In this document: piece after piece, positions 5,499-30,501 of the stretch
Layout: every line of letters starts with the position of its first letter
Position numbering within the stretch: position 1 is the first letter of the stretch
Source: a virus
Lineage: Duplodnaviria; Caudoviricetes
Reading direction: 5' to 3' (one strand)
DNA: 59,244 nt
IMG/VR virus record: IMGVR_UViG_3300033067_002000
Coordinates: 1-59,244 of that record
Made by a program: the position numbers and the translations under genes
Notes under the pieces: generated by a model
Database searches by the model: none
Seen by the model: only the letters and a program-made list of their open reading frames with translations
Told to the model about the DNA's origin: nothing

Positions 5499-5533
5499 GC
5501 TGTGCTCCCTCGTTTTAGAGCAAGAGGCCGTTG

Positions 5534-13800: not shown

Positions 13801-14973
13801 CTCGGGCGCTGGTTAGCACCACTGATCGGGCGCGGGGCCGAGAACAAGCACCTGCCGCCTTGGTACTTGTTCACACCTCAAGCCTTCAGGGAAGGGCTGC
13901 TGGCCGGCTTGTTGGACACGGACGGGACAGTATCTTGCTCCAAGCCCACGACCAAAAAGTTGAACGGGCAATGGATGGTGAACTACAGCAGTACCAGTCT
14001 GCGTCTGTCGCAAGAATTGGTATGGTTGTGTCGCTCGTTGGGGATCCATGCGCACGTAGGTCCCACCAAGACCAAGGCAGGGGGGCCGGCTTGGCAAACC
14101 AACATCTCTACCGTGGATCTCACACGTGCAAACGTGCCGTGTGTCCACGCTGAGAAACGTGACGGGCTGTCGCGAATCAAGACCGAGGTCGCACAGGTGA
14201 GTGCCGCCAGTTCCGCTCTCGACATGATTCCTATCCCGGAGTTCATCGCAGCCAAGCTCAGCCGGTGCTGTCCGACAAGTTCTACGCCGTATGTCCTTTT
14301 GCGGAAGGCGACGCGGACAAACGTCGTCAATCGCGCGCTGGCCGAACGGGTCTTGGCCAGCAACCCTACGCTGCGTGAAGATGTCAGCCCTCTCATGCAA
14401 CGCTGGTTGCAGATCGTCGACAATCACGCAGTTCGCTGGGACCGCGTCGTCTCCTACGAGAAAACCGGCATCGTCGAGGACGGCTACGACCTCACCGTCC
14501 CCGGCTACGAAACGTTCATGAACGTCGAAGGCGTGATCCTGTCCAACACGTTGCAGATCCACGCGCCCATCACCGCCGGCGGCATCGAGGACACCAAGAA
14601 GATGCTGCTCTCCAACCTCCTCTTGGCTGATCAGAGGAAGAACACGTTGATGGCGTTCCCTCAGCACGAAGCCATCATCGGGTTTACCCTTGCGGCGAAA
14701 GCTCAGGGTAAGGGTCCTGTGAAGCACTTCGCTACTGAGGAAGACGTGATCGCAGCCTACCGGCGCGGCGAGATTCCGATGGACGCCCTGGTGGAAATCG
14801 ACAACAAGAAGCACGCCGCCGACCCCGTCGACAACACCGACAACGACGAGTCCGACCCTGCCGAAGGCGATTTCGTCCCGGGGCACGCGAGCGTCTTAGC
14901 CTTGTATCCGCCCGGGAGTGTCACCGGCGAAGCGGATGAAGACGATGACGACGATGTTCCCGTTTCTGGCTGA
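7834..14973 (+). CDS. rpoBC: RNA polymerase beta fused to N-terminal half of beta', containing two inteins (about 1513 aa after splicing)
   Basis: Beta motifs HFGALDPIRTPE, GNRAIMGSKMGTQA, GDKL|SGRYGNKG and GLGKMEFDAL; beta' motifs VPVVPPILRP, FNRAPTLHR and NLDYDGD|TLQIHAP. Confidence 0.96.
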   Translation: MPNLTPILTDAATLRAKIHAKAASALKSAFPIDLKGRTLELEDVKVHAQEYGPNDQKQKLLTEGSLNEAIKGTLVLKDSQGRTINRAENFLLGHLPYLTERHTLIANGNEYQLANQLRRKPGVYAQRAENGELKSTFNLGRGKNFDLTFNEGKGTFHLAYGTSNIPLYAVLNGLGAKHEDVSKAWGAGVAAANRDEHGHQVDASISKLYGKLAHPSTLNMALDHEAKRAEIEKSWAKTQLDPEVTHATLGHGHDRVTIPALLAASKKLLQIHKGETEVDDVDALTYKTFHAIDDVLAERLGLAARDWKMKARFALNGKTNIREALKPAPFSNSIRKFVTTSSLTAVPTGINPMEILDHAMKVTSLGEGGIPSDRAIPYDARMIHDTHFGALDPIRTPESGHSGVDIRATIAAHRDDAGNLYTVVRDVKTNKEVYLRAGDLAKYVVAFPHQPLSGLVDAFEHGKQTRVPASRVTHQVIHLKHLYSPVTTLIPGIHSIQGNRAIMGSKMGTQALPLVEREAPHVQVMSHLADDVSFERIYGSMITPRAPVAGTIKKIDENWIYIQPHTKKMGEKTAAEALVKVPYQNHFPFPSKTYLHHALHVKAGDKVEEGENMGESNFTRKGTLALGKNLLVGYLPYYGFNSNDAVVISDAASKKLTSEHMYREVYPLSTGLEINKAKHRMYVGAKYTVSQYAQLGEDGVVKKGAKVHPKDILVAGMMKQQITGTDAMLGRISKALSSPYKDVALTWEHGTQGEVIDVVKSGGQIAILVKTLERMQIGDKLCYAEGTDVLTETGWKPIQDVLLTERVAILDGDELKYDYPSATHKYATGGRMYSLETQQVDLLVSETHNMYVKRRSGKAFELIPAKSVWKERVRYRKDANWTGVPAQPVIFPAMQVVAGRHGHGTREMPAFSMAAATYAMLLGMFLSEGNCVDQIDSGSYGIDITQIKEPNRAMLLDALTAAGLKFCEASHHTKVRIYSKQLLEHFKQFGLSEDKYIPNFVFTWDRETLKILFKWLMWGDGNALDGRSVAYTTTSLRLADDVQRLLLHIGYAGNIKSSHKPVQTIKGRTSHNCLRRYDVRTITTKLQPEVNHGHTKTQSGQTESWIPDYQAPIYGLTVPGGVIYVRRNGKSVWSGNSGRYGNKGVVAKIVPDHEMIRDAEGRPIDLLLTSAGVVSRINPMQVIETALGKVAEKTGKPILFDNAAGHNAEAWAQKLLNEHNIKDKEHLYDPVLKRHIKGSDGNGVLVGRQYIYKLFKSTDTNFAGHGVGPYDLNEQPLKTGGDDSAKGLGKMEFDALLAHNARNFLRDAATVRGQKSEEFWKAVQTGMPLPAGKPSFAYNKFLGMLEGAGIRVDKRGSKITLMPLTDKDVLARSTGAIENNKTLAAKNLKPEAGGLFDLRRTGGANGTLYSHIDLHEKMPSPVFQEPVRRLLGLTQAEFDKHLGDKGGSWFHSELSKIDVTKKIAELREKMKKAGGPVLNDLIKQIKYLETLKAHNLTPQDAYMVSKVPVVPPILRPILPMPNDPTQIMVSDPNKLYAHLMDANHTLKNTAIESDTAKHRRELFGSMEALYGTALPLDPKLSQQKTKGFLANIAGVGTPKGGFFQRKLMRRNQDVSGRGTAVPDVNLGMDEIGVPEAMLWGMLDKFLVARLVRKGYSGLDARELVNKKTPAAKQAMMEEVKERPFIFNRAPTLHRFSVLAAYAKPVQGKTLRVNPFGEKGLNLDYDGDFSISALTVLIDSATSDDVTRKWAASQTEVPMSARFKEVVGVKNGTSVYFCHLADFPRHEEISSVSNHITFHKVPDGVEVLSYDAATGRIIATKPSYWSFHKQREVEIATLMSKRQIISDDDERAVYGLNANLEEVRARPSEAVGIHVPVGFGFEDLGETLTRIATPPINRNNAYALKEFIELNERTGRVIGTYVGDGWVSYLHDKIVGTCLANVAPEVTKHFYADLEAEFFAEMPGTYHRTTEALTQGNYGESQKHTVNSTELGRWLAPLIGRGAENKHLPPWYLFTPQAFREGLLAGLLDTDGTVSCSKPTTKKLNGQWMVNYSSTSLRLSQELVWLCRSLGIHAHVGPTKTKAGGPAWQTNISTVDLTRANVPCVHAEKRDGLSRIKTEVAQVSAASSALDMIPIPEFIAAKLSRCCPTSSTPYVLLRKATRTNVVNRALAERVLASNPTLREDVSPLMQRWLQIVDNHAVRWDRVVSYEKTGIVEDGYDLTVPGYETFMNVEGVILSNTLQIHAPITAGGIEDTKKMLLSNLLLADQRKNTLMAFPQHEAIIGFTLAAKAQGKGPVKHFATEEDVIAAYRRGEIPMDALVEIDNKKHAADPVDNTDNDESDPAEGDFVPGHASVLALYPPGSVTGEADEDDDDDVPVSG
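10177..11241 (+). mobile_element. Intein 1 (355 aa) with LAGLIDADG homing endonuclease, in the beta GDKL/SGRYGNKG motif
   Basis: Starts CYAEGTDVLT and ends WSGN before Ser; LLGMFLSEG and WLMWGDG motifs; removal restores the conserved beta motif. Confidence 0.92.
13015..14547 (+). mobile_element. Intein 2 (511 aa), atypical N-terminus, LAGLIDADG endonuclease, directly after catalytic DYDGD
   Basis: Ends GYDLTVPGYETF...ILSN before Thr; IGTYVGDG and LAGLLDTDG motifs; removal gives NLDYDGDTLQIHAP, matching NADFDGDQMAVHVP. Confidence 0.88.
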
Positions 14974-15496
14974 GCTGATTGAGAAGACGGGGTCGGACTA
15001 CGACCAACCCGCCCCGCCCGAGCAACCGGCACCCCCGGAGCAGCCGGCGCCGCCCGAACAAGCCCCGGAACCCGAGCAACCCTCTCCCTATCTGGAAATC
15101 CTTCGACGGCTTCTGACCAAGAAGACGACGTTGATGCTCGCGTACATTTCCTACGGCGACCAGCTCCAAGCGTTCTTCCGCGACGGGATCTACGAGCACT
15201 TCCAAGAGCACCTCAAAGAAGAGCGGGCTGCCGTCTACGAAATCCACAAGAAGATCGTGGCGCTCGGCGGCGGTGCTGGCGTGCAGATCGAGCCCGTGCC
15301 CCCAGTGCCGCTCGACAACCCGCGCTTCATCTTCGGCATCATCCAGTCTTTGGAGATGCAGGCTGTCGAGCTCTGGACCGAGCTCTTCAACGCTACCAAG
15401 AAGGACGTGCCTCTGAACGGCCTCGCGCAAGACAACGCACGCATCGATCAAGCACACGCGGACGACATGGCGCGCTACCTTCGGGCGGTACCATGA
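14954..15496 (+). CDS. Ferritin-like (Dps/bacterioferritin fold) protein with N-terminal leader and QPAPPE repeats
   Basis: YEHFQEHLKEE...KIVALGG, LEMQAVELW and DQAHADDM helical-bundle pattern; start uncertain (14936/14945/14954). Confidence 0.65.
   Translation: MFPFLAELIEKTGSDYDQPAPPEQPAPPEQPAPPEQAPEPEQPSPYLEILRRLLTKKTTLMLAYISYGDQLQAFFRDGIYEHFQEHLKEERAAVYEIHKKIVALGGGAGVQIEPVPPVPLDNPRFIFGIIQSLEMQAVELWTELFNATKKDVPLNGLAQDNARIDQAHADDMARYLRAVP
15005..15082 (+). repeat. In-frame 18-bp repeat (QPAPPE x3 plus variant)
   Basis: Translation QPAPPEQPAPPEQPAPPEQAPEPEQP. Confidence 0.8.
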
Positions 15497-15852
15497 GCGA
15501 GCTCGACCCCTTGATCCACGGCATCGCCACGCGCCTGAAGAAGAAGCAGCGCGGCTTTCACTTCGATCCCCCGCCGGGTTTTTACGGAGTCAAGAAGCTC
15601 TTCGGCAAGACGGCCGAGGCGTGCGCGCGTGGTGTGGCTTCGGTGCTCGCGAAGTACGCCCTGCTCGACAACCAGAAGACGCCGATCGAGGACCTCGCGA
15701 AGCTCTTCAGCACGTCGAACTTTGGGTACGGCGACAACCCTGGCAAGCGGCCGGGCAAAGAGCCTGTGAACTGGGGCGCTGCGGGCGCGGCGCCTGACGG
15801 TCAAGGTGATCGCGCGGGGGCTTCGAGGTTCTTGCGTTCAACCAGCGTTTGA
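15493..15852 (+). CDS. Hypothetical protein with KTA motif
   Basis: ATGA-coupled to the upstream gene; coding-like codon usage. Confidence 0.65.
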   Translation: MSELDPLIHGIATRLKKKQRGFHFDPPPGFYGVKKLFGKTAEACARGVASVLAKYALLDNQKTPIEDLAKLFSTSNFGYGDNPGKRPGKEPVNWGAAGAAPDGQGDRAGASRFLRSTSV

Positions 15853-15863
15853 TAGGAGTTGAA

Positions 15864-16523
15864 ATGAGTACGCCCGAACAGATCAAAGAAGCCCAATGGC
15901 GCGGCGTCGACCGCGCCCTCACCCTCTACGGCCTCGACAAGACCGCCGGTGTTCTTGGCACGCTCGGCAGCGCGCTCGGTCGAGCGGGCACCGGCGCAGC
16001 CAAGGCGTACCAGCATGGCGGCGGCACCATGATGCAGAACGCTGCGAAGGGTGCCAAGGCCGGTTGGTCGGGCTTCCAGCGCGCAGGTGGCATGCAGGCT
16101 GCTGGCAAGGCCCTCGGCGGCGCGGCGCTCGCGGGTGGCGCGGCGTACGGAGCAGGCAAGGCGTTCGGGGCGGGACAGCAGTCGAACCAGCCGCCGAAGA
16201 TGGCGGGGATCAGCGACTTCGCGGCCATCGCGGCCCTCCCTGCTCTCGGCGGCGCGTTCAAGGGCGTTTCGCACAACCACGCAGAGCCTGTTCAAGGTGC
16301 CGCACGAGGTGTCGCAGGCGCGACGGGCGGGGCGCTGGCCGGCGGCGTGGCGGGCCTCGGCGGCAGCCTCGCGCTCTCGCACCTTTTGAAGCCGCAAGTG
16401 GGTGACAAGAGCCCCATCAAGGCATTGGCCGCGCTCGCGCCCCTCCTGCTCGGTACGGTCGGCGGCGGCGTCGGCGGCTACAACCTCGCGACCAAGAAGT
16501 ACGATCAGCCCCGTCAGGACTAA
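15864..16523 (+). CDS. Gly-zipper membrane-type protein with LYGLDKTA leader (putative virion cargo)
   Basis: AGGAG SD; GxxxG-rich hydrophobic helices; N-terminal module shared with 18570..19394. Confidence 0.75.
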
Positions 16524-16540
16524 ACAGAAGGACAACGATC

Positions 16541-16768
16541 ATGGATTTCGGACAGGCACTTCTCCTGCTCAAGCAGGGACATCGCGTGGCTCGGGATGGC
16601 TGGAACGGCAAGGGCATGTCCCTTGAACTGCAACGCCCGGACATGAACTCAAAGATGACGCTCCCGTACATCTTCATGACCACGGTGCAAGGTCAGCGTG
16701 TCCCGTGGCTTGCGTCGCAAACCGACATGCTCGCCGAAGACTGGGCCGTATTGCCCGCCATCGCGTAG
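16541..16768 (+). CDS. DUF2829 / Tad2-like anti-defence protein
   Basis: [21 protein letters not shown]...PYI...[15 protein letters not shown] signature. Confidence 0.88.
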
Positions 16769-16780
16769 TAAGGGGGTCTC

Positions 16781-18583
16781 GTGCCCGTCACCGTCGGATC
16801 CATCCTCATCAACTCCGTGATGCCGAAGGGCTACAAGCTCAACGGCCCCATCACCAATCGTGATCTTCATGACCATGTCGTCGGCTTGGCGAAGTCCGAC
16901 CCTGCACAGTATGTGCAGACGATCATGGCGTTGAAGCGGCGCGGCGACGAGATCGCGACGCTCGAAGGTGTGTCCGTCGGCCTTGAGGACATCCGGCCGG
17001 ATTACGCGGCGCGAGACAAGATCATGGTGCCTGCCATCAAGGCGCTCGCGGAAGCCAAGACTGAGAAGGCCCGCGAGAAAGTCATCATGGACACGCAGGC
17101 TGCGATCACCGCGCACACCAAGCAGCACCCAGGGTCCATGACCCACATGGCGCTGTCGGGCGCGCGCGGCAACATCGGGCAACTCATGAAGATCGTGGCT
17201 ACGCCGTTGGCGTCGGTGCACCCAAGGAAGGGCGTCAGCCCCGAGTTCATTGACCGCTCGTACTCCGAGGGCCTTACCCCGGCGCAGTACTGGCGCGCGG
17301 GACCCGAAGTGCGAGCCAACGAAGTGAAGGCCCGTATCTCGGTTTCTGAGCCTGGCGAGATGGCCAAGGTCCTCGTCAACAACATGATCGGCCAGGTCAT
17401 TACGTCGTCCGACTGCGGAACTTTCAACGGCGTAAAGACCAGCCTCGATGACGGCCACATCCTCGACCGGTACACCCAGGCGGATCACGGGCTGCCAAGG
17501 AATACCCTCGTCACTCCTCAACTGATTCAACAACTCAAGCACAAGGGCAACATCGCAACGTTGTTGGTGCGCTCTCCCATGACGTGCGCCGCGACGCAAG
17601 GCGTCTGCCAGCACTGCCAAGGGCTCAACGAGAAGGGGCACATGCACGCCGTCGGCATCACCGTCGGCGTTCGCGCGGCCCAAGCCATGGCAGAGCCGCT
17701 CACGCAGATGGCGCTCTCGTCGCGTCACGGCACGTTGATGGTCAAGGAGAAGGCGGAAGCCCCTTCAGGCTTGAAGGGTGTGCGGCAGCTCTTGGAGATC
17801 CCGAAGGCATTCAAGCACGAAGCCGTACTCGCACCGCATGCCGGTCAGGTCGGTCAGATCGAAAAGGCACCTCAAGGCGGCCACTACATCCACGTCGGTG
17901 CAAAGAAGCTGTACGCGGGCCCGAATCTCACGGTCACGGCGCACGAAGGGCAGACGGTCGAGCACGGCGACACGCTCACCGATGGTGTTCCGCACCCGGC
18001 CAAGATCGTGGCGGCCAAAGGCATCGGCAAGGGCCGCGCGCACTTCGTCGATGCGATGTACGCGCTGTACAAGGGCGAGGGTGTCGACCTCGACAAGCGG
18101 CACTTGGAGCTGCTCGCCAAGAGCGAGATCAATCACGTGCGGCTGCTTGAAAGTGACCCGGATCACCCCGAGCTTTTGAAGGGTGACACGATCAACTACA
18201 ACCAGTTTCGCGATGCGTACGTACATGACGTCGCACGTTTGCCCGTGGCAGATGCCATCGGCAAACGCCTGGGGGCCGAGGTTCTCCATCACACCGTCGG
18301 GACGTTGATCACACCGAACGTCGCGAAGGAGCTTCAGGGCCACGGCGTGCACGAAGTGAGCACGGCGCGACGCATGCCCCAGGTCGAGTTCGTCATGAAG
18401 CCCTTCGCGATGAACCCGCTTTTGGAGCGCGACTGGATGGCGCGTTTGTCGCACCGCTACCTGAAGAACACCTTGCAGGAGGCCGCGCAGTTCGGCGAGA
18501 CCTCTGACATCCATGGCACGCACGCAGTGCCAGCGTATGCTTTCGGAGCGGAATTGCGACACGGACCCAATGGAACCTTCTAG
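16781..18583 (+). CDS. rpoC: RNA polymerase beta' C-terminal half
   Basis: SGARGN, SYSEGL, DCGT, RSPMTC...GVCQHC Zn site, AAQAMAEPLTQMALSSRHG trigger loop, DKRHLE. Confidence 0.95.
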   Translation: MPVTVGSILINSVMPKGYKLNGPITNRDLHDHVVGLAKSDPAQYVQTIMALKRRGDEIATLEGVSVGLEDIRPDYAARDKIMVPAIKALAEAKTEKAREKVIMDTQAAITAHTKQHPGSMTHMALSGARGNIGQLMKIVATPLASVHPRKGVSPEFIDRSYSEGLTPAQYWRAGPEVRANEVKARISVSEPGEMAKVLVNNMIGQVITSSDCGTFNGVKTSLDDGHILDRYTQADHGLPRNTLVTPQLIQQLKHKGNIATLLVRSPMTCAATQGVCQHCQGLNEKGHMHAVGITVGVRAAQAMAEPLTQMALSSRHGTLMVKEKAEAPSGLKGVRQLLEIPKAFKHEAVLAPHAGQVGQIEKAPQGGHYIHVGAKKLYAGPNLTVTAHEGQTVEHGDTLTDGVPHPAKIVAAKGIGKGRAHFVDAMYALYKGEGVDLDKRHLELLAKSEINHVRLLESDPDHPELLKGDTINYNQFRDAYVHDVARLPVADAIGKRLGAEVLHHTVGTLITPNVAKELQGHGVHEVSTARRMPQVEFVMKPFAMNPLLERDWMARLSHRYLKNTLQEAAQFGETSDIHGTHAVPAYAFGAELRHGPNGTF

Positions 18584-19394
18584 CTTCGACATTGACGCGG
18601 TAAAGGCTCAGACCCGTGTGAAGGTCGCGACCCTCTATGGCCTCGACAAAAGCGCGTATGAAGCAGTCGGCCCTCTTGAAAGCGCCCTCGGTCGCGCGGG
18701 TCGCGCCGCATCCAAGGCGTATCAGAACGACAGTGGCCACATCCTTCAAAAGCTCCTGGCTGGGACGGGCGCAGGTTGGAAGGGCTTTCGCCGAGGTAAG
18801 GGCTTCAGCGCAGCGGGCAACGCGTTGTTCAGTGAACACGTCATTCACCCTTCGCAGCCGGGCGTCCTCAACAAGCTCAAGGCTTTCGGCAAGCACGTCG
18901 GGGAGTTCGGCCGCGAGATGGTGGCAGGCTCGCCGATCACCTTGGCGAAGCAATTGAAAGACCACCACATCGAAGCCGGGGGCGGCGTCGGCGGCGCTGT
19001 GCGCGCTGGCGGCAAATACGTCAAGGACTTCTACATGTCGCCGAAGTCGCCGATGTGGATGAAAGCCCTTTCGCTCGGAGTGCCAGCGATGGAACTTGGC
19101 GGCATCGCGCTCAAGGGTGATCCTGCGACACGCAAGGGCGATCTGGCGCACGCGATCTCCGGCCTCGTCGCCTCGCCCTTTACCGCGCGCTTGGGCTTGC
19201 CCGGTATGGCCCTGCAAGGCGCGGTTCAGTCAGGTGCGCGCGCTCTGGCGTCCAAGTTCGACCACAAGAAGCAACCGTACGATCCGAACTACGCACAGCT
19301 CGGACCACACGCTCGCAACGTCGTTCGCGCCACCGGCGGCCCTTTGAACGCCCTCAACGACATCGTGCCGCCTGATATAGACGCGGCCACCTAA
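18570..19394 (+). CDS. Gly-rich protein with LYGLDKSA leader (N-terminus paralogous to 15864)
   Basis: About 65-aa module shared at protein and DNA level; hydrophobic C-terminal helices. Confidence 0.7.
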   Translation: MEPSSFDIDAVKAQTRVKVATLYGLDKSAYEAVGPLESALGRAGRAASKAYQNDSGHILQKLLAGTGAGWKGFRRGKGFSAAGNALFSEHVIHPSQPGVLNKLKAFGKHVGEFGREMVAGSPITLAKQLKDHHIEAGGGVGGAVRAGGKYVKDFYMSPKSPMWMKALSLGVPAMELGGIALKGDPATRKGDLAHAISGLVASPFTARLGLPGMALQGAVQSGARALASKFDHKKQPYDPNYAQLGPHARNVVRATGGPLNALNDIVPPDIDAAT

Positions 19395-19427
19395 ACTACG
19401 CACAGAACACCAAGGAGCTACTCAGCG

Positions 19428-20861
19428 ATGGCAACCGTCTTCAATCAAACGTACCTCAAGGGCATCAGCGACATCTTCGTCGACGAGGGCTGGATGCCCG
19501 CGTGGGTGAACGAGAAGGTGGCTTGCGACGTGTTCGACAAGATCGCGAGCAAGCACAGGCTCCCGCAGTTCCTGGAGAGCCCGCTGCCCGACGACGTGAA
19601 CATCAAGATCGCCAACGACCTGCTCGCCGAAGGCCGCAAGAGCCCCGCGCTCGCATCGACCTACGCGCGCCAGAAGCAGGCGTCGCTCATGGATGCGAAC
19701 GAGCGCGCCGGCATGGTCGCCAGCTTCTACATGCAGAAGATGGCGGACGAAGCCAGCCTCAACAACACCGGCCCCAATACGGCCGAGAGCGCAGCGCAGA
19801 CGAACGCGAACGCCGCGCTCGACAACCGCAATCGCTCGCCGCGCGCGTACATCGTGCCGCGCGGACACACGGACCTTCCGCAAGGCGGCGTGACTGGCAA
19901 GCAGATGCCGCACCCCGAGGCACCCAAGGGTCCGGCGATCGACAACACGCTCACGCACCTCGACAAGCAGGCGCAGCTCGACCGCGCCTGGCAGTTCGTG
20001 CGCGGCGTGTCGCAACGCGGCTACGACCCTCGCGACCCCAAGGTCGTCCTCGCCGCGTGCGGCCTGGCGGAAGCCGGCAACACCGGCCTCGAAGCGATGA
20101 ACCTCGTGCTCTCGAACGCGAAGACCGCGAATGACATCGGCGCGCTGATCGAGCAAGTGCTGATGCAGCAGGACCAGGAGCACCACACACCGGACCCCGC
20201 GCTGATCGAAGCGTTGGAGCAGGCGCTTCAGAGTCAGATGGGCGGCGCACCCGAGGGCAGCATGCCTCAAGGCATGGGCGAAGGTGACCCCACCCCGGCG
20301 CCTGAGACGAACGCCCTGAAGGAAGAGCCCGCGCCGAAGATGGACGACGGGAAGGCCCCTGGCGAAAAGGCCGCCGGCGACTTCGTCGAGATGATGAAGG
20401 CGAAGAAGGACAAGCCGAAGGACGACAAGGACGAGAAGAAGACCAAGGAGGCCGCGCTGCTCGCGACCTTGAAGGCAGCGGCCGAAGGTTCGCTCAACTC
20501 GACGGGCGCCAACACGCCCGAGAGCGCCGCGAAGACCAACGCGAACGCGAAGCTCGACATGGAGAACCGCAAGCCGAACGAGTACCTCCCAGGTCGAGGC
20601 CAGACCGATCTGCCGGACGAAGGCCAGATCGGCGCGACGATGCCGGCTCCCAAGGCCCCCGACGTCGTGAACCCGGAGCTGACCAAGACCCTCACGGCGG
20701 CGGAGCGCGCGTACAATGAGCGCGTGAAGGCTGCCGGTGAGAAGTGGGGCAAGAAGTTGCCCGCAACGATGCCCACGGGCGAGAAGCGCGCGACAATCAT
20801 CGCGCTGGCCGGCATGCCCGAGCACCTGCACGGGCAGTACGTCGCAGAGCTCAGCAAGTAG
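19428..20861 (+). CDS. Putative head-internal protein with duplicated ~60-aa module and many KxA sites
   Basis: AAGGAG SD; strong codon bias; two copies of ExSLN.TG.NT.ESAA.TNANA.LD..NR.P..Y...RG.TDLP. Confidence 0.75.
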   Translation: MATVFNQTYLKGISDIFVDEGWMPAWVNEKVACDVFDKIASKHRLPQFLESPLPDDVNIKIANDLLAEGRKSPALASTYARQKQASLMDANERAGMVASFYMQKMADEASLNNTGPNTAESAAQTNANAALDNRNRSPRAYIVPRGHTDLPQGGVTGKQMPHPEAPKGPAIDNTLTHLDKQAQLDRAWQFVRGVSQRGYDPRDPKVVLAACGLAEAGNTGLEAMNLVLSNAKTANDIGALIEQVLMQQDQEHHTPDPALIEALEQALQSQMGGAPEGSMPQGMGEGDPTPAPETNALKEEPAPKMDDGKAPGEKAAGDFVEMMKAKKDKPKDDKDEKKTKEAALLATLKAAAEGSLNSTGANTPESAAKTNANAKLDMENRKPNEYLPGRGQTDLPDEGQIGATMPAPKAPDVVNPELTKTLTAAERAYNERVKAAGEKWGKKLPATMPTGEKRATIIALAGMPEHLHGQYVAELSK

Positions 20862-20883
20862 TACAGCCTCACGCTACTAACGG

Positions 20884-20919
20884 AGCGCCCGCCAGCCGTA
20901 TACTTCGGCGACGGGCGCT
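20884..20919. other. Intergenic hairpin with TATACTT loop
   Basis: AGCGCCCG/CGGGCGCT outer stem and GCCG/CGGC inner stem. Confidence 0.6.
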
Positions 20920-20943
20920 TCGCCTATTTAGGGAGCATTGCAG

Positions 20944-23529
20944 ATGTCGATGGATCCGTTCGCCCTTTCGCAGTCGCCGCGCACGCAAGGGTTTCAGCAG
21001 CCGCAGGGTCAGCAGGATGAGGACGACCTGTTCACACAGGGCTTCACTGAGCTCGCGCGCAACGCCTTTGCGAAGACGCACCCCGAGCTGCTCGACATGT
21101 TGCTCACGTTCCGTGTGCTCTCGACCGATGCGAGCGCGGGCGAAGGCCTCGGTGCGTTCATCTTGCGCGCGGCGAACGATGTGCTCTTCATCCCGGCCGT
21201 GATCGTCGACAACACGATCAAGCCCTTGGAGATGTTTTACACGCGCGTGAAAGACCGCTTCTACCCGCTCACAGCGGAGTGGTTGCAAACGGCCACAGCT
21301 GGCGTGTCCACGATGGGGGATGGTGTAGAGCCGCCCAAGACCCTGACGACGGACGTCGATCTGCGTAATCAGATGTTGCCGCCGACCACGGGCAGGTACT
21401 CCTACGCCGAGGACTACAGCGACCCTGCGTGGTCTCCGTTTACGGCGGCAAAGGTCGCAGAGGTATCGGATGGCACCCCGCCAGTCGTATTCCCCGAGCT
21501 GCTCTCGAAGATGGCCAACCACCAAAAGGTGGCGTTGGCTCGCTACTTCCAGCGGTGCGTCCCCTATTTCCGCAAGCTCGCGGAAGTTTACGGCGCAAAG
21601 ACTCTGATCGCGGCGCTTCAGCTCACCGAGGAAAAGACCGCCGCTGGCATCCACACCGAGATGCCGATCAAGCGCGACGTGTACCTCGTCACAGCCAGCA
21701 CCGATCGGCAAGAGATCAAGAAGGAGCTCGGGGTCGACGGCGCGAAAGAGGCCTACAAGGCCGTGCGCTACCACGGGTTCTACCTGAAGGATCGTCGCGA
21801 CGGGATGCGCGATTCCGTGGTGTCGATGCCAGAGGAGCTGGTGGGGCTTACGACTCCGGGCGCGCCCGGCGTGTACATGGTCTTCTTGGCCGACGGTACG
21901 GCCGAGAAGGCCCTGATCATCCCCGATCCGATTTGCGTGAGCCCCGCGCAGACAGACAATCAGCGCATGGCACGTGACGACCACAAGAGCTTGAAGGAAG
22001 ACGCCTACAAGGAAGGTCCCCGCTATCTCGTGCTCATGTCCGGGGGTCGTGGTGGTTGCCTGGATCATCTCGTGGTGGAGCCGGTTCTCTCGGCCTCGCA
22101 AGAAGAGCTCGAAGCGTTCATCGACGGGATCACCGAGAAGTCTCCGGAGCGCCGGGAGCGTGGCTGCCTGGTGTCGACAGCGAATTTGACCTTCCGTGCG
22201 ACCGACATCTTCTACGCCGAAGACGTGAACGTGTCCGACGACCAGGTCACGATCAACGCCGGCTACCGATCGAAGATCATCATGTCCCGCAAGCTCGGAG
22301 GCGGTCGTGTGATCAAGCCGACGGGGGCCTCTGCGTTGATCTTCCCGAACTCGTTCCGGTGGCTCAAGGTCACCGAGGACCTGCGCGACGGAGATCTGCT
22401 CGACAGTCAGCGCGCCGTGATGCAGGTGCTTGAGCAAGGTGTGAAGCGCAAGGGCCTCAAGAAGATCGAGGTCAAGACGGCTTCAAACGGGGCTTACGTC
22501 GTCGGACGGCATGGTTGGTCATCCGACAACAAGATCGAAGCCATCGTGAAGGTCGCGACGACGTACAACCTCGGGCTCAAGGACGCGGCGGAGATTGTCG
22601 AGATCACCCGTACAGGCGTACCCGTGCGCGCGTGGGCGGAGAAGACTGCCGCCGAAGGCGCGGCCCCTCAGCCGTCCGAAGAGCCCATGATGGACCCGAG
22701 CATGGTGGCACCGGCGCCGCCTCCGCCGACGGGCATGGAGCTCGCCATCCAGGAGAAGCTCACACAAGTGGCGGCGCAGCGCGCGGCGCTCGATCAGGCC
22801 GAGCAGATGCTCAACGAGATCCTCGGACGCAGCCAGGGCATCGACGCGGGCGGTGGCGCAATGGCGGCTCCGGGCGCAGCGGCAGCCATGGCAGGCGGCC
22901 CGTCGCAGGGTGTGATGGGACAGCCCGCGATGGCTCCCGTGCCGGGGTTGACTACGGATCCAGGCATGCAGCAGGGCGCAGTTCCGCCTGCGCAGGGGGC
23001 ACCGCAGGGCGCCCCGCCGCCTGCCGATCCAAGCATGCAACCGCAACCCGGAACGGTTTCGGGCATGCAACAGCCGCCGATGGATCCGAGCATGGGAAGG
23101 GACCCAGCGATGCAAGGAGATCCGAGCATGCAGCAGCCGGAACAGCCGCCCATGCCGGTCATGCCCAAGGACCCGAATCCAGCGCTGTTTGACCAACAGA
23201 TCAACCCGGCCTTCTTGGACCAGGCGGCCGAGCTCGACAACCAGGGTGTCTTCGACGCGACGGCTGTTGCGTCGCTCGCGAGCGTACGATCGGTTCGGGA
23301 CTTGCTCCAGAACTACACACCGACGCTCGATAACGCGCTTGATCGATTGGGGCGCACGCTGCTCCTTCTGTACGTGAAGAGCCGGATGATTCAAGATCAG
23401 ATCGGCGCCGAAGCGTACACCCGTATCGAGCAGACCATCCGTGACGTCTTCCGGATGCTTGGAGACGCGCTTTTGGAGCTCAACCAGTACGGTGATTCCT
23501 TGACCCCCAACGGAGCGCGCGCCGCATAA
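20944..23529 (+). CDS. Large putative head core/scaffold protein; Pro/Gln/Met-rich linker with DPSM repeats
   Basis: Long ORF with SD; KVA/KMA/KLA/KTA sites at apparent domain boundaries. Confidence 0.7.
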   Translation: MSMDPFALSQSPRTQGFQQPQGQQDEDDLFTQGFTELARNAFAKTHPELLDMLLTFRVLSTDASAGEGLGAFILRAANDVLFIPAVIVDNTIKPLEMFYTRVKDRFYPLTAEWLQTATAGVSTMGDGVEPPKTLTTDVDLRNQMLPPTTGRYSYAEDYSDPAWSPFTAAKVAEVSDGTPPVVFPELLSKMANHQKVALARYFQRCVPYFRKLAEVYGAKTLIAALQLTEEKTAAGIHTEMPIKRDVYLVTASTDRQEIKKELGVDGAKEAYKAVRYHGFYLKDRRDGMRDSVVSMPEELVGLTTPGAPGVYMVFLADGTAEKALIIPDPICVSPAQTDNQRMARDDHKSLKEDAYKEGPRYLVLMSGGRGGCLDHLVVEPVLSASQEELEAFIDGITEKSPERRERGCLVSTANLTFRATDIFYAEDVNVSDDQVTINAGYRSKIIMSRKLGGGRVIKPTGASALIFPNSFRWLKVTEDLRDGDLLDSQRAVMQVLEQGVKRKGLKKIEVKTASNGAYVVGRHGWSSDNKIEAIVKVATTYNLGLKDAAEIVEITRTGVPVRAWAEKTAAEGAAPQPSEEPMMDPSMVAPAPPPPTGMELAIQEKLTQVAAQRAALDQAEQMLNEILGRSQGIDAGGGAMAAPGAAAAMAGGPSQGVMGQPAMAPVPGLTTDPGMQQGAVPPAQGAPQGAPPPADPSMQPQPGTVSGMQQPPMDPSMGRDPAMQGDPSMQQPEQPPMPVMPKDPNPALFDQQINPAFLDQAAELDNQGVFDATAVASLASVRSVRDLLQNYTPTLDNALDRLGRTLLLLYVKSRMIQDQIGAEAYTRIEQTIRDVFRMLGDALLELNQYGDSLTPNGARAA

Positions 23530-23536
23530 TCAGCTG

Positions 23537-24253: not shown

Positions 24254-24280
24254 CAGCGGAACGCTAGACTAAAGGCACAC

Positions 24281-25138: not shown

Positions 25139-26417
25139 GAAGGCCACTCTCGCGGAGGTGGAAGACATCCTCCAGAAGAACGCAGGCTTCCTTCAGCAGG
25201 CGGGCGCCGCTGCACGTGGGCTTGCGTCTGGAGCCAAGCAGGTCGCCCACCAGCAAGGGGTGAAGCAAGAGCTCCAGGGCGCCGTCAACACGTTGCACCA
25301 CATGGGCGCTCTGCCTGCTCAGGTCAAGGGCAATGTTGTACAAGCACTGCCGCACGGTGTCGGCGTTGGTGAAAAGGGCCCTGGCGCCCTCTCACGCTTG
25401 AGTGAGAAGGTGAAGGGTGCGCTCGGCGGGGCGAAGCAAGAGTTCGCGCAGACTCGCGCAGCGGATCAGGCCGTCGATCGCTTCAAGCAGATTCAGCAAG
25501 GCGAAGCCGAAGTTGCGAAGGCAACGGCGACCGCACGCGCGCAGGGGCTCAATGTTCCGGATGCTCTGGCTGGTCAGAAGAACTACCGCGACATGACCCC
25601 GGAGCAGTACCTCCAGATGCACGGACACGTGGTACCTGCGCACCACCAGACACCGGCGCCTCGCCCTGCGCCGCAAGCAGCCCCGCAGGGTTCTGCCGCG
25701 TTGCCGCCGGGGCCTCAGATGCCGTACAGACAAGCGCTCGCGCCGCCTCCACAACAGACGTCGCCTGCACCTACAGCACGACCCCAGCAGAACTGGGCAC
25801 CGCGCAACGCGGGGGCTCTTGGGCTCGCCGGCGGTGCAGCACTTCTCGGAACCACAGCATGGCGCGGCAACCAGGCCGCGACGGAACAGGAGATGCGCAT
25901 GCGTGACTACCAGACCAATGCGCAAGGGAACATGGCGACACCGATGCCTTCGATGGCGGTTTACGCGAGCTACGAGAAGTTTGCGGCGCTCAAAGCACAG
26001 CCTCCGAAGTCGCCGTACACGCCGGTGTATCCGACGATGCAGGGCGCCCTTGCGAACAGCTTGGCCAGTCAGTTGGCTTCGAAGTTCATCGGCGACCCTA
26101 TCGACGCGATCCAGAAGGTGCTCAAGAAGAAGTTCTACGACGAGCCGAAGCACAGGGCGTCGTACGACCACGCCATGCTCGACCCAGACTTGATCGCGCT
26201 GCACAAGGACAAGCCGGACGTGTTGCCCATGGCGTTCAGCACGCTCAAGAAGTTCGCGCCGACAATGAGCCAAGACCCCGGGCTCACGCGAACGTGGCTT
26301 CGTCAGGTCGCACAGAGCGGCATGCACGATACAGGGCCTGACTTCGCCACCCTGCGTATCATCACCGAGGCTGAGAAGAACCTCGCCCAGGCGAAAGGCA
26401 ACGGCAACCCGTGGTAA
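25128..26417 (+). CDS. Hypothetical virion protein with QKNAG leader and one Gly-zipper helix
   Basis: Overlaps both neighbours; GALGLAGGAALLG segment. Confidence 0.7.
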   Translation: MRDKKATLAEVEDILQKNAGFLQQAGAAARGLASGAKQVAHQQGVKQELQGAVNTLHHMGALPAQVKGNVVQALPHGVGVGEKGPGALSRLSEKVKGALGGAKQEFAQTRAADQAVDRFKQIQQGEAEVAKATATARAQGLNVPDALAGQKNYRDMTPEQYLQMHGHVVPAHHQTPAPRPAPQAAPQGSAALPPGPQMPYRQALAPPPQQTSPAPTARPQQNWAPRNAGALGLAGGAALLGTTAWRGNQAATEQEMRMRDYQTNAQGNMATPMPSMAVYASYEKFAALKAQPPKSPYTPVYPTMQGALANSLASQLASKFIGDPIDAIQKVLKKKFYDEPKHRASYDHAMLDPDLIALHKDKPDVLPMAFSTLKKFAPTMSQDPGLTRTWLRQVAQSGMHDTGPDFATLRIITEAEKNLAQAKGNGNPW

Positions 26418-26638
26418 ACCCATCTCTGCTTGTCTCTCCGACGTTGCGCGCTGCGCTGCGTACGTACGGCTTCTCGAAGCTCTCGGCGCTCGTGCTGGGG
26501 GCACAGGGTGAGTACGCCCCCACCGACGGCTCGTACGAGGAGCTCGCCAAGTGCTTGGGGGCGAAGTTCGCCAGCAACCACATGAATCGTGCCGTCATCC
26601 TGGACGGTTTGACCGCGTTGGAGGAGCTCAATGTTTGA
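26411..26638 (+). CDS. Small protein with YGFSKLS leader-like motif
   Basis: GTG start overlapping the upstream gene end; 3' end carries the GGAGG SD of the next gene. Confidence 0.55.
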   Translation: MVNPSLLVSPTLRAALRTYGFSKLSALVLGAQGEYAPTDGSYEELAKCLGAKFASNHMNRAVILDGLTALEELNV

Positions 26639-27158
26639 CGCGGTAAAGGCGTGGGGCGCGATCAAGGAGGCGGCGCTCAGCGAAGGGGAAACCCTGGTTG
26701 AGGGCTTGTCTCACGTCGCGCTCGCGGCTTGGTCGCGCTGTGATGCCGGGACCAAGCTCAGCGCAGATCGACCGACGCGAGAAGCCTTCGCGGCCTCACT
26801 CGTCGGCGCGGCGATCGTGGATACTGCGCTCGACAAGCTCGCGGCTGAAGGTACGTACACGCCTGAAGAGCATCAATTCTTGAAGGAGTTGAATGCCGAA
26901 GCGGCGCTGACGGACTTGGCCGAGTTCACCAAGAACGCGTCGACCCTGGAAGCACTTCTGTCGACGATCAAGAAGAACCCAGCACTTGTGGGCGCAGGTG
27001 CCGGTGCGGTCGCGGGTGCTGGCTTTGGCGCGTACGCCGACGACAACAACCGGTTGCGCGGGGCTCTTCGCTTCGCGTTGCCAGGAGCGGCCACCGGCGC
27101 GCTTCTCGGTAACGGGGCGTCTCAACTCCACGCCGAGAGTCTCGCCAAGGCCAAGTAG
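26631..27158 (+). CDS. KxA protein with C-terminal Gly-zipper hairpin
   Basis: GGAGGAG SD; VGAGAGAVAGAGFG...GAATGALLG. Confidence 0.72.
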   Translation: MFDAVKAWGAIKEAALSEGETLVEGLSHVALAAWSRCDAGTKLSADRPTREAFAASLVGAAIVDTALDKLAAEGTYTPEEHQFLKELNAEAALTDLAEFTKNASTLEALLSTIKKNPALVGAGAGAVAGAGFGAYADDNNRLRGALRFALPGAATGALLGNGASQLHAESLAKAK

Positions 27159-27181
27159 CCCGCCTCTTACATTTTCCCCCG

Positions 27182-29020
27182 ATGGACAAGATCGTAGAGC
27201 TCGGCGAGCACTTCGCTAACACCGGAGAGCCGACTGCGCAGCTCGTGGCATTTTCAAATGGACGGGGCGGACTCTCGATGGAGAAGACCGCGTTGGCGTC
27301 CGCGCAGTCGCCGCTCTACGATTTCCTCCAGACCATCCAGGCTGAGCCGGGGGTGTACTACATCCTCGTCAACGCGCTTGGCTCTTGGGAGTACTACGAC
27401 GACAACCGCAACGGCGACGGCTTCCCGGCCATGCCGTACAAAGTTGGGCAGCCCGCAAGCTGCGGACACCCCGACTGCTCGAACCCTGCGGGTTGGATCG
27501 CGGAGCCTGAGACGCTCCTGCACCACTACAAGAGCTTCGAGAAGCACGGCGGGATCTACCTCCACCACAAGAACAGCGATCCGACCAAGTCTCTCGGCGA
27601 CGTCCGCAACGCGGTGTGGAACCCCTACATGCGTCGCGTCGAGCTCCTGCTCAAGGGCTACAACGACCGCGACGCACGTATGGCGCAGCGCATCGGCGAC
27701 GGGGACTTCCCCGCCGTCAGCATGGGCGCTCGCGTGCGTTGGGACGTGTGCACGATCTGTGGACACCGGGCGCCTACGCGCGCCGATTACTGCGTGCACG
27801 CGGCCACGATGCTCCGCAAGGTATTGCCGGATGGTCGCAAGTGTTCTGTGCTCAATCCGAGCCCTTTGTTCTTCGACATCTCGTTCGTGTTTCGTCCAGC
27901 GGACCCGACAGGCTACATGCTTCAGAAAGTCGCGGAGACGATCGTTATTTCAAGCGCAGAACTTGGAGAACGTCGTGCGGAGCATCAAGAGCGTGTGCGC
28001 CGTGCCGAGCAAGAACGTTCCAAGTTCGCGGAGTTGACTCGTAGTCCTTATCGGCGCGAGGCTGATGTGATCGCCCGGGAGTGGCCAAGCCTCGCCGGCG
28101 CGACTCGCGAAGTGTTGGCATCTGTGCCTGTCGCAACCGCCCTCTCGTCGTTGGCCTACGCAGGTGTCGTGCTTGGCGCTCACGAGGTGACTGATCTTTT
28201 CGCCACGCGAATGGGTCACACGGTTACGGCTGAGTGGCTCGACCGTGTCGCCGCAATCCAGCCGGTGCTGCAAACGATCTGCGATATGCACCCGATGCTC
28301 GAAGAAAAGTTGGGCGGCGCAATTCAGCTGCGTATTGACGCAGTAAATGGAGAGCCCCTCAACAAGATCGGCGAGTGGATTGAGAAGCGGGGAGGCCTCG
28401 GTCACTACCTGCGCCAACAGGCGTTTGCGCCTTCGGACTTCGATCTACCGATCGGCCCTGGAGCCTGGCACCGCGCCACGGAACCCGCGAAGACCGACGT
28501 GTTCACCATGACGGACCCTGCGACCGGTCAGCAGTACCAGACCACGCGCGGCGCTGCGATGGGCGCACACAACGAAGATGTGAAAAGCCAACTCGCGGGT
28601 ACGGCTTTGATGGGGACTTTGTACGCCGGAGGCTTGCGCGCGATGCTCGGACACCGTGCGGGGCTGTGGGCGCTCCCTGCAAGTGCCGCCGCCGGTTGGG
28701 CCACGACCAAAGCGATGAAGAAGATGTTTCCGCCGCACCGATACCATGAGTACGGCACGGACCAGGGTATCCCAGTCTCCGGCGGCACCGAGTTCATGAA
28801 GGTTTCAACGCTCGTCCAGCGGGCAGCCTTCGACGAACAGGCCGCTGATCGAGCACGCGCGCACGGGGGGCCGTTTGCGACGTGGCTCGGAATGCCCGAG
28901 TCGCAGAAGCTCGCTTCGCTTCTCGAAGGTGCGATCGGAGCTCCCGAGGAGCTCTACGGTCCGCCCACGTTGGACCTCACCGTTCTCTGCCAAAACATCG
29001 CAGCGGTGCTTTGGCGCTGA
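27182..29020 (+). CDS. Prohead (capsid maturation) serine protease with Zn-finger insertion and long C-terminal extension
   Basis: LHHKN (His), VSMG (Ser), FFDISFV..PAD (Asp), CTICG...YCVH; lies upstream of scaffold-like and capsid genes. Confidence 0.75.
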   Translation: MDKIVELGEHFANTGEPTAQLVAFSNGRGGLSMEKTALASAQSPLYDFLQTIQAEPGVYYILVNALGSWEYYDDNRNGDGFPAMPYKVGQPASCGHPDCSNPAGWIAEPETLLHHYKSFEKHGGIYLHHKNSDPTKSLGDVRNAVWNPYMRRVELLLKGYNDRDARMAQRIGDGDFPAVSMGARVRWDVCTICGHRAPTRADYCVHAATMLRKVLPDGRKCSVLNPSPLFFDISFVFRPADPTGYMLQKVAETIVISSAELGERRAEHQERVRRAEQERSKFAELTRSPYRREADVIAREWPSLAGATREVLASVPVATALSSLAYAGVVLGAHEVTDLFATRMGHTVTAEWLDRVAAIQPVLQTICDMHPMLEEKLGGAIQLRIDAVNGEPLNKIGEWIEKRGGLGHYLRQQAFAPSDFDLPIGPGAWHRATEPAKTDVFTMTDPATGQQYQTTRGAAMGAHNEDVKSQLAGTALMGTLYAGGLRAMLGHRAGLWALPASAAAGWATTKAMKKMFPPHRYHEYGTDQGIPVSGGTEFMKVSTLVQRAAFDEQAADRARAHGGPFATWLGMPESQKLASLLEGAIGAPEELYGPPTLDLTVLCQNIAAVLWR

Positions 29021-29051
29021 TTACCCTACTGCCCCAGGAGCCCAAAGACAG

Positions 29052-29645
29052 ATGAACACTCAATCGCTCAGCCTCGACACACTGCTCGGTCGCAACAAGA
29101 CGGCGGCGGCAGCGCCCACGCAGCAAGCGCCGACCCAACCGGCTTCAACCACTTCAAAGGTGGCGGCGGCAGTGGACGCGGCGACGGCGGCAGCCACCGC
29201 GAAGGTTGCGTCGACGGCGACGCCCGTGATGCCCCTGATCAACAAGCTCGCGTCGGATCTCGCCAAAAGCGATGCGGCCGATCTGGAGAAGGTTGCGGCC
29301 CGCTGCGGCTTGATCATGGCCGATACCTTCGTCGCGCAGATGGGCCACTACGAGAAGATCGCCGCCGAGGTGATGGCGAAGACCGCTGCGGAGCAGCCGG
29401 CCAACGGTGGCATCGATCCCGAGGTCCTCAAGTTCGCGAAGCTCGCGCTGGAGAACCCAGAGGCCGCGTACGCCCTGATCGAGAAGCGCGCCGCCGAGCG
29501 CCAGAATGCCGCGCCCGCCGACGCGATCAAGCAGGCCGAGGAAGAGGCCGCGCGCGAAACCGAGGAAGCGATCTTCAAGGGCGCCGCCGAGCACTACCTC
29601 CACGGCCAGGAAGTGGCCAAGCAGCTGATCGCGACAGCCAAGTGA
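29052..29645 (+). CDS. Scaffold-like Ala-rich protein
   Basis: 12 of 15 Lys are K-x-A; located between protease and capsid genes. Confidence 0.7.
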   Translation: MNTQSLSLDTLLGRNKTAAAAPTQQAPTQPASTTSKVAAAVDAATAAATAKVASTATPVMPLINKLASDLAKSDAADLEKVAARCGLIMADTFVAQMGHYEKIAAEVMAKTAAEQPANGGIDPEVLKFAKLALENPEAAYALIEKRAAERQNAAPADAIKQAEEEAARETEEAIFKGAAEHYLHGQEVAKQLIATAK

Positions 29646-29830
29646 AGAACGAACGCCGCGCACAACTGGTAGCCGAGCACTTGGGGCTGCGCAAAGCGGC
29701 CTTCGAGAGCGCAGCACCACACGTGAATGCCTTCTTCAAAGAAGCCGCTGCGGCCTTCTCGAACGTGAAGGTGGCGACCGAACTGGCGAACTTCGACACA
29801 GTCCTGCGAAAGCACTTGGTGGAGCGCTAA
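29642..29830 (+). CDS. Small KxA protein
   Basis: GTGA coupling; KAA, KEA and KVA sites. Confidence 0.6.
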   Translation: MKNERRAQLVAEHLGLRKAAFESAAPHVNAFFKEAAAAFSNVKVATELANFDTVLRKHLVER

Positions 29831-30112
29831 ATGGCCCTCGCGAAATTGGCGGCGCTGCTTCGGCAGCTCCCTGAACCCGAAGTGACCTTCGAGTCCTTGT
29901 ACGCCGTAAAAGAGGCCAATCTCTCGGCGTTCACACCCGAGCTCCCGGCGGCGCCCATCGACTTGGGTACGCCCGGCGATAGCCTCCGCAAGCTTGCGCA
30001 CGCGTGTCGTTGCGAGGAGGTCGCGCGCATGACGCGCTTCCACGAGAAGAACGCTCGCGCTCTTCGTGCAATTCGCGGCCTTACACTCTTGCAAGAACGG
30101 GTCAACTCATGA
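29831..30112 (+). CDS. Small KxA protein
   Basis: Starts immediately after the upstream TAA; 4 of 4 Lys are K-x-A. Confidence 0.65.
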   Translation: MALAKLAALLRQLPEPEVTFESLYAVKEANLSAFTPELPAAPIDLGTPGDSLRKLAHACRCEEVARMTRFHEKNARALRAIRGLTLLQERVNS

Positions 30113-30501
30113 GCGCGCTGGAAAAGATTGCCGAAGCCTTGGATGCCCTGGGCCTGGAACGCGACGCGGAGGCTGTCAAGGTGGCCGCCGCTCCGCCTCC
30201 CGAAACGAAGGTCGCCAGTTCCGCCGAAGCCTTCAACGCACTCCTGCGTGACCGCTTCGGCACCGAGCTTCCTGAAGAGCTTCGCGCCAAGTTGGCGACG
30301 ACCGACGACGGCAAGCTTCTGGAAGCCCTCGACACCTTCGTGAAGCAGGCGGCGGCTCCGGCTCCGTCCTTCGGAGACGCGGTCGAATCGCGCGATCTCA
30401 GCAACATCACGCCGCGTACGCGCGCCGAGGCAATCAAGCTCGCAGACGAACAGTTCGCAGCGGCCGTCTTCGACGCGACCGAGGGTTACTACGAGGGCTG
30501 A
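30109..30501 (+). CDS. Scaffold-like KxA protein
   Basis: ATGA coupling; 6 of 7 Lys are K-x-A. Confidence 0.7.
   Translation: MSALEKIAEALDALGLERDAEAVKVAAAPPPETKVASSAEAFNALLRDRFGTELPEELRAKLATTDDGKLLEALDTFVKQAAAPAPSFGDAVESRDLSNITPRTRAEAIKLADEQFAAAVFDATEGYYEG

Follow-up and report, generated by a model that had tools for sequence, protein, structure and literature searches.

For dozens of head proteins, it is the prohead protease that determines which portions are retained in the virion, and only a handful of specificities of such enzymes are known. The enzymes of phages T4, phiKZ, 201phi2-1 and SPN3US all cleave the bond that follows Glu, and in the available portions of the papers that describe them P1-Glu cutting is a feature of every characterised phage enzyme of T4 fold (PMC10052503, PMC5694885). 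According to the same excerpts, SPN3US gp245 recognises A-X-E as P3-P2-P1 and cuts behind it, favouring Val at P4 and Ser at P1' (PMC10052503), and removes N-terminal propeptides, making several cuts within the long ones (PMC10052503, PMC5694885). The SPN3US and phiKZ proteases also autocleave C-terminally, and gp22, gp67 and gp68 of T4 are cut to short fragments (PMC5694885, in part). Phage G gp19 has been named a head maturation protease, with no motif given in the accessible part of its source (PMC12484599). This work concerns the IMG/VR virus record IMGVR_UViG_3300033067_002000, a stretch of 59,244 bases (referred to here as the window) which is the entire contig available for its genome. 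The window encodes a prohead serine protease, whose gene starts at position 27182, together with proteins in which Lys is followed two residues later by Ala (K-x-A) far more often than expected. As a motif, K-x-A is well supported by sequence comparison, and it would constitute a new code on the known T4 gp21-type system. A literature search yielded no description of K-x-A as a phage protease motif, the matches on prohead protease cleavage motifs being all of the Glu type.

Window proteins are designated below by the first coordinate of their gene. In total, 29 of them were compared with 5000 composition-preserving shuffles each. Four proteins (24281, 29052, 29831 and 30109) are saturated with the motif (Table 1), and the manual Lys counts given for them in an earlier note on this DNA are all reproduced. 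Two larger proteins, 19428 and 20938, are moderately enriched, and the sites of the latter are grouped at residues 172-270 and 513-569. The enrichment, which that note had proposed to compare with shuffled controls, persists when shuffling is restricted to blocks of 10 or 20 residues, a procedure that keeps local Ala content: all six enriched proteins stay significant (p 0-0.007), so that the signal does not disappear once the Ala content of the saturated proteins (15-26%) is taken into account. In these four proteins, Ala occupies K+2 at 31 of 37 Lys and K+1 at one of 37, while its frequency at the other offsets from -6 to +7 ranges between 16 and 32%.

The enrichment is not general along the window. 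The 20 open reading frames (ORFs) outside the head module hold 18 K-x-A, compared with 21.2 expected. Within the interval 14954-30501, to which the earlier note refers, saturation does not extend to 14954 (0/8 Lys in K-x-A), 16781 (0/37), 25128 (5/28) or 18513 (2/21), all of them at or below expectation. The low counts noted for the capsid protein and for a presumed sheath, about 2/17 each, are both recovered (34580-37819 has 2/17, with 2.0 expected), although the identity of 34580-37819 as a sheath received no confirmation from PHROGs. The description of the motif-bearing proteins as head-internal also proved too narrow, as the most saturated proteins occupy a scaffold or core position between the protease and capsid genes.

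The same bias is found throughout the relatives of this phage. A search for related loci with a single protease sequence retrieved no loci. With a capsid-protein alignment as the query, 80 IMG/VR loci were fetched around capsid homologs and were retained if a protease homolog preceded the capsid gene in the same orientation. Among 81 loci plus the window, 55 contained both genes, 48 passed length and strand filters and 43 remained after removal of near-identical proteases; two of these (L033 and L057) had no called capsid ORF and were dropped, leaving 41 loci for the count, the window and Salmonella phage Arash included. Genes in these loci were defined by crude longest-ORF calls. In all 41 loci (GC content 0.46-0.71), the ORFs lying between the protease gene and the gene that directly precedes the capsid gene show enrichment in K-x-A (z 3.6-9.7, 0/1000 shuffles), so the conservation in homologs that the earlier note proposed to check holds, Arash and Vibrio phage D69 included. 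In the capsid proteins of these loci, 1-3 of 15-25 Lys are in K-x-A, with the exception of one miscalled ORF.

When every residue pair at offsets 1-5 was scanned in 168 syntenic proteins (22,321 residues) of the 41 loci, K-x-A came first by a wide margin, with 824 occurrences versus 238 expected (z=38), which comprise 60% of the 1366 Lys. The pairs ranked next all add to this motif: z is 18 for Thr at +1, 16 for Leu at -2, 15 for Ser at +3 and 10 for Glu at -1. Leu at -2 is found in 28% of the 824 sites (3.4x enriched), and position +3 holds Ala in 29% and Ser in 23% (3.6x background). In this protein set, R-x-A is not enriched (177 vs 217 expected), and K-x-S (48 vs 87), K-x-G (46 vs 78) and K-x-T (31 vs 84) are all depleted. 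Judged by these counts, Arg is no substitute for Lys, and neither Ser, Gly nor Thr is a substitute for Ala, which contradicts the suggestion in the earlier note that cutting would also follow K-x-S and K-x-G. V/L/I-x-A is likewise depleted. Glu-type motifs were evaluated in the same proteins, as an enrichment test and not one of cleavage, and remained far below the z of K-x-A (L-x-E 4.1, A-x-E 3.2, S-x-E 0.6, I-x-E -0.1, G-x-E -2.8). Since the codons of the motif residues match non-motif usage and the x position is filled by 56 different codons, the signal lies at the level of protein and not of DNA.

Individual families show how the motif is maintained. In the 24281 family (17 homologs, median identity ~29%), 178 of 351 Lys (51%) are in K-x-A, 4.0x the expectation; at three sites the alignment column is conserved in 70% or more of the 18 sequences and the others shift position, a turnover typical of short linear motifs selected for their presence. 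In the 29052 family, 79% of Lys are in K-x-A (3.8x enrichment), and in an alignment of 11 homologs K65 and A67 do not vary, with K51-T-A53 almost as constant. Three homologs each were found for 29831 (12/16 Lys in K-x-A) and 30109 (14/18), and two for 29642. Enrichment is lower in the families of 20938 (1.9x, 28 homologs) and 23537 (2.2x) and in full-length proteases (2.3x), while the families of 25128 (1.0x), the capsid protein (0.86x), 30537 (0.83x, 23 homologs) and 34580 (0.37x) are at or below expectation. Among cultured relatives, Arash has 10/21 Lys in K-x-A in gp220, 8/16 in gp223, 7/13 in gp225 and 7/35 in the protease homolog gp222, and D69 (GC 0.44) has 11/30 in 0268, 10/18 in 0271, 6/10 in 0273 and 8/32 in its protease.

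Residues ~38-251 of the protease form its catalytic domain, beyond which the protein is extended C-terminally by ~360 residues. Pfam contains no family matching it at E<=0.1, a profile of 27 homologs retrieved no chain of the PDB sequences at E<=1, and PHROG 18299 is its sole profile match; sequence comparison places it in neither MEROPS S77 nor S80, and T4 gp21 was found by fold comparison only. An AlphaFold2 model of residues 1-280, built from a 27-sequence alignment, has a mean predicted local distance difference test (pLDDT) of 79. Its best solved match is T4 gp21 (5JBL; VIA-align Z 11.7, root-mean-square deviation 2.8 Å, 146 of 165 residues aligned; Foldseek probability 1.00, E 3.6e-3), far above the proteases of varicella-zoster virus (Z 5.9) and human cytomegalovirus (Z 4.7). 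In BFVD, the 41 matches at E<=1e-3 comprise prohead proteases along with Bacillus phage G gp19 and proteins of PaBG and RSL1. On the basis of the model, the enzyme is assigned the fold shared by T4 gp21 and the herpesvirus assemblins. Its gene precedes the capsid gene by 2-5 kb, in the same orientation, both in the window and in 55 of the 81 loci fetched, namely those that contain the two genes, the rest being short contigs. Its Arash homolog, gp222 (L001 21738-23213), is annotated only as 'structural protein'.

Candidate catalytic residues are the invariant His pair and the Ser of the VSMG string (Table 1), with D188, D232 and D241 as invariant candidates for the third one. Inteins typically reside in active sites. 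Intein-like insertions of ~365-387 residues starting with Cys are present in 10 of 43 protease homologs (which reach ~940-1060 residues), and eight of them follow S-M-G (L004, L010, L011, L025, L032, L048, L051 and L057) and another follows H-H (L065); therefore, they mark those residues independently as candidates for the active site. The tenth (L039) lies in a zinc-ribbon-like element, and the window protease carries no such insertion. That element, formed by the invariant C190, C193, C204 and H206 (CxxC...CxH; 27749-27799), is inserted after the candidate catalytic Ser, and is not known to have a counterpart in T4 gp21.

The positions of the motif in the protease and in the capsid protein are also conserved. 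Two K-x-A sites border the protease catalytic domain. At the N-side site, Ser is the next residue in 30 homologs, and the two exceptions to the motif are a protein truncated at a contig end and one that reads K-V-S; the C-side site directly follows the catalytic domain. The only segments of the model with pLDDT<50 (35-39 and 239-257) bracket the folded core and coincide with these sites. In the capsid protein, residues 27-32 contain T/V-K-x-A in all 12 sequences displayed, including those of Arash and D69, and by analogy the invariant K28-x-A30 would lie at the usual place of a short capsid propeptide. The strings quoted in the earlier note were all located: EEKTAAG and AEKTAAEG (K233 and K569 of 20938), GEKAAG (K314 of 19428), LQKVAE (K249 of the protease) and VSMG (S180).

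According to these data, K-x-A is probably the recognition motif of protease 27182. That this enzyme reads K-x-A, unlike the Glu motifs of its relatives, was already proposed in the earlier note; the clade-wide enrichment, the flanking sites, the fold and the i/i+2 layout argue for it, and from them we infer that cutting takes place. If the motif is indeed recognised, the bond cut is likely the one after Ala rather than the one after Lys, because the i/i+2 geometry, the upstream preferences and the downstream Ser or Ala mirror characterised relatives, so that Lys would be P3 and Ala P1. The complete proposal, in which the prohead protease of this clade recognises the extended motif L-[E/V/T]-K-[T/L/V/Q/I]-A-[A/S] and cuts it after Ala, is somewhat more probable than its negation. 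The protease would then enter the prohead by means of its C-terminal extension and free its own catalytic domain by cuts at K35-T-A37 and K249-V-A251. It would chop the scaffold-like 29052, 29642, 29831 and 30109 and the helical 24281 into peptides, mostly shorter than 30 residues, trim propeptides or linkers of the larger internal proteins 19428 and 20938, and remove ~30 N-terminal residues of the capsid protein. Computed cutting of 29052 at every site gives a median fragment length of 17 residues, and pieces no longer than 30 residues make up 85% of the sequence. A predicted complex between the protease core (40-248) and residues 1-120 of protein 29052 scored 0.02 against a mark of 0.32, a result that counts neither way.

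Several observations weigh against cleavage at K-x-A. The large polymerase subunit 7834 contains the motif at chance level (15/169 Lys vs 15.4 expected), and therefore its presence alone would be insufficient for cutting; as it is not avoided in the catalytic core of the proteases either (50 vs 28.5 expected), accessibility must matter too. The choice of scissile bond is made by analogy. In the Arash virion proteome, gp220-gp225 have 80-100% sequence coverage, so that the proteins or their pieces are still present, and the available part of that paper never mentions a protease or cleavage (PMC10585845); because the preparation is so broad (116 of 272 proteins, nucleotide-metabolism enzymes included), it is uninformative on whether gp220-gp225 are intact. 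The distant protease relative gp97 of mycobacteriophage Myrna has 15 K-x-A versus 7.3 expected, which is not its top pair; given the lack of a clear signal there, the code would be specific to the Arash-like clade. Finally, the model of 24281 (pLDDT 83) consists of nine helices, and all its nine sites are within confidently predicted helices. The earlier note had placed sites at boundaries between ordered and low-complexity segments, which applies to the protease but not to this protein.

The helical placement of these sites would suit an explanation without cleavage, in which K-x-A would serve helical core proteins for binding or packing, for instance by repeated docking to the portal, the protease or the inside of the capsid, or through helix-helix contacts. 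Leu at -2, Ala at +2 and Leu at +5 would share one helix face, so the pattern may be partly structural, and K-x-A-rich proteins are still detected in the Arash virion preparation. However, residues i and i+2 point to opposite faces of a helix, Ala enrichment is weak at +3 (1.6x) and +4 (1.3x), and a structural Lys normally exchanges with Arg, which is not what R-x-A shows. The two invariant protease sites are in disordered linkers exactly at domain borders, and positions turn over at constant density, a behaviour typical of short linear motifs that an enzyme reads. Binding or packing is judged unlikely. A strict requirement for Lys with no tolerance of Arg would also suit covalent modification or crosslinking of that Lys instead of proteolysis. 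This is very unlikely, as the motif flanks the protease domain and the capsid N-terminus in the classic geometry of propeptides, and family searches of the 29 window ORFs between 5531 and 41932, the other ORFs not being searched, gave no candidate modifying enzyme.

Recognition by the protease could also be combined with a cut after Lys (L-x-K↓x-A), that is, a charge-swapped version of the T4 motif L/I-x-E↓ with Ala at P2'. The T4 motif has Leu or Ile two residues before the cut (PMC5694885, in part), the presence of Leu at -2 raises the probability of Ala at +2 from 0.57 to 0.80, and such cuts would escape tryptic proteomics like that of Arash. Nevertheless, the near-absolute positions are Lys at i and Ala at i+2, with Leu at -2 in just over a quarter of sites; the characterised relatives do not combine an obligatory P2' with a dispensable P3 but read P3 and P1 with a preference for Ser at P1', and the enrichment of Ser and Ala at +3 suits a P1' after Ala. 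Cutting after Lys is accordingly judged improbable, slightly more so than binding or packing. An artefact of Ala-rich composition, low complexity or a repeated DNA element is suggested by the Ala content of the saturated proteins; it has a negligible probability and was rejected on the basis of the shuffles, both global and local, which fall short of the observed counts, of the single-offset profile and of the codon analysis, with a signal that holds from 44% to 71% GC. The preferred reading remains recognition of K-x-A by the protease and a cut after Ala.

From its ORFs and their translations, the plus strand from ~5.5 to 42 kb corresponds to a phage head and virion module. The gene order is polymerase subunits, unmatched genes, protease, four small Ala-rich genes, the 169-residue gene and the major capsid gene (Table 1); several genes between the beta' C-part and the protease had no match in family searches, including Pfam and PHROGs. 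Capsid protein homologs number at least 821 at E<=1e-5 in a metagenome protein collection, on contigs of up to 198 kb, and only four cultured records match: Arash (37% identity) and the Vibrio phages D69, D181 and D148 (32%). Because of these numbers, sequence comparison assigns the window, as a fragment, to a member of a large and mostly uncultured clade of phages of roughly 170-200 kb with a virion RNA polymerase.

Table 1. Genes and sites of the window, with K-x-A counts and supporting matches
Feature	Coordinates	Strand	Lys in K-x-A	Basis or remarks
Portal-sized gene	5531-7291	+		ORF reading
RNA polymerase beta fused to N-part of beta', 2379 residues	7834-14973	+		Pfam Rpb2_6 1e-35, Rpb1_2 1e-13
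RNA polymerase beta' C-part	16781-18583	+		Pfam Rpb1_5 1.7e-13
477-residue protein	19428..20861	+	12/38, expected 5.5, p=0.003	moderate enrichment
863-residue protein	20938..23529	+	10/37, expected 4.3, p=0.004	moderate enrichment
All-helical protein, 285 residues	24281..25138	+	9/12, expected 1.8, 0/5000 shuffles	
Prohead serine protease, 612 residues	27182..29020	+		PHROG 18299 'head maturation protease' E 1.7e-5; fold match
N-side site K35-T-A37, predicted autoprocessing site	27284..27292	+		K-x-A in 41/43 homologs
His128-His129, candidate catalytic His	27563..27568	+		invariant in 27/27 aligned homologs
Ser180-Met-Gly (VSMG), candidate catalytic Ser	27719..27727	+		invariant in 27/27 aligned homologs
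C-side site K249-V-A251, predicted autoprocessing site	27926..27934	+		K-V-A in 43/43 homologs
Scaffold-like Ala-rich protein, 197 residues	29052..29645	+	12/15, expected 3.9, 0/5000 shuffles	first gene after the protease
Small protein, 62 residues	29642..29830	+	3/5, p=0.06 taken alone	
Small protein, 93 residues	29831..30112	+	4/4, expected 0.63, p=0.0002	
Small protein, 130 residues	30109..30501	+	6/7, expected 1.5, p=0.0002	
169-residue protein	30537..31046	+	0/6	last gene before the capsid gene; internal negative
Major capsid protein	31087-32010	+	2/17, expected 1.7	
K28-Q-A30, predicted propeptide cut of the capsid protein	31168..31176	+		K28 and A30 invariant in 30/30 aligned capsid proteins

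Other features of the module were observed. The ORF for the polymerase fusion includes a LAGLIDADG/intein-splicing segment (Pfam) at residues ~2018-2238 (nucleotides ~13885-14548), and its Arash counterpart has 1525 residues. Both polymerase subunits are among the most abundant proteins of the Arash virion, as reported in the accessible text of PMC10585845. In the beta' C-part of the window, 4.0 of the 37 Lys would be expected in K-x-A and none is, which may reflect avoidance of the motif in a packaged enzyme that needs to stay intact. The head module also encodes a protein (14954-15496) in which a ferritin-like domain (PF00210, 30 bits vs a cut-off of 24.5) comes after three PAPPEQ repeats; none of the eight Lys of this protein is in K-x-A. 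The products of 15849-16523 and 18513-19394 are Gly/Ala-rich paralogs with a common N-terminal block, LYGLDK[T/S]A...ALGRAG; K-x-A ends this conserved leader, which by its sequence looks like a shared propeptide. In Myrna, gp97 (L082 8905-12540) has a prohead-protease domain at its N-terminus, and its gene immediately precedes those of gp98 and the major head protein; its annotation as 'tape measure' therefore appears to be wrong.

If the proposed code is true, it would be a second, sharply defined one, showing how specificity evolves on the T4 gp21 fold, and a P1 Ala would link the phage and herpesvirus branches. The boundaries of mature proteins would become predictable across the clade: the protease would excise its own residues 38-251, the capsid protein would lose 30 residues and scaffold pieces would have ~17. 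Tryptic digests would be blind to the motif because trypsin cuts at its Lys. The code can be tested directly in cultured relatives, namely Arash and the D69 group of Vibrio phages. It is an even call whether this clade has re-tuned a protease of T4 gp21 fold from P1-Glu to K-x-A↓[A/S], with P1 Ala and P1' Ser as in herpesviruses and a basic P3, giving a maturation programme that can be read from sequence.

Among described systems, a close module is that of Arash (OQ632216), in which gp220-gp226 are syntenic and comprise the portal, RNA polymerase, internal proteins, protease homolog, Ala-rich proteins and capsid protein; K-x-A is enriched there in the same way, and both protease sites are present. 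It differs in the 'structural protein' label of gp222, and the part of the Arash paper available is silent on a protease or processing (PMC10585845). With T4 gp21 (MEROPS S77), the enzyme shares its fold and the layout of the motif, two residues at i and i+2 with a gap between them. Under the proposed code, it would also share the short cutting of core or scaffold proteins with many sites and the removal of propeptides from capsid and internal proteins, which are described for T4 in the excerpts of PMC5694885 and are predictions here. It is unlike T4 gp21 in that Lys and Ala would be read, instead of Leu/Ile and Glu, and in having the zinc-ribbon-like insert, the long C-terminal extension and no Pfam match.

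phiKZ gp175 and SPN3US gp245 (MEROPS S80) belong, as would the protease of this window, to phages of large size in which a multisubunit RNA polymerase is packaged along with numerous internal proteins. The P3-x-P1 reading, the P1' Ser, the C-terminal autocleavage and the multi-site propeptides, which the partial sources give for those phages, are predicted here under the proposed code. The differences are their motif, A/S/G-x-E with P1 Glu, where P1 would be Ala in this case, and the separate clade of the window phage, with four phage records matching its capsid protein. The herpesvirus assemblins (MEROPS S21) have a related fold, although the match is much weaker than that of T4 gp21, and they also free themselves from a scaffold-like C-terminal extension. 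Their consensus is (V/L/I)-x-A↓S, which a P1 Ala followed by Ser or Ala at P1' would match if the cut is after Ala, with a P3 that is hydrophobic in assemblins and would be Lys in the protease described here.

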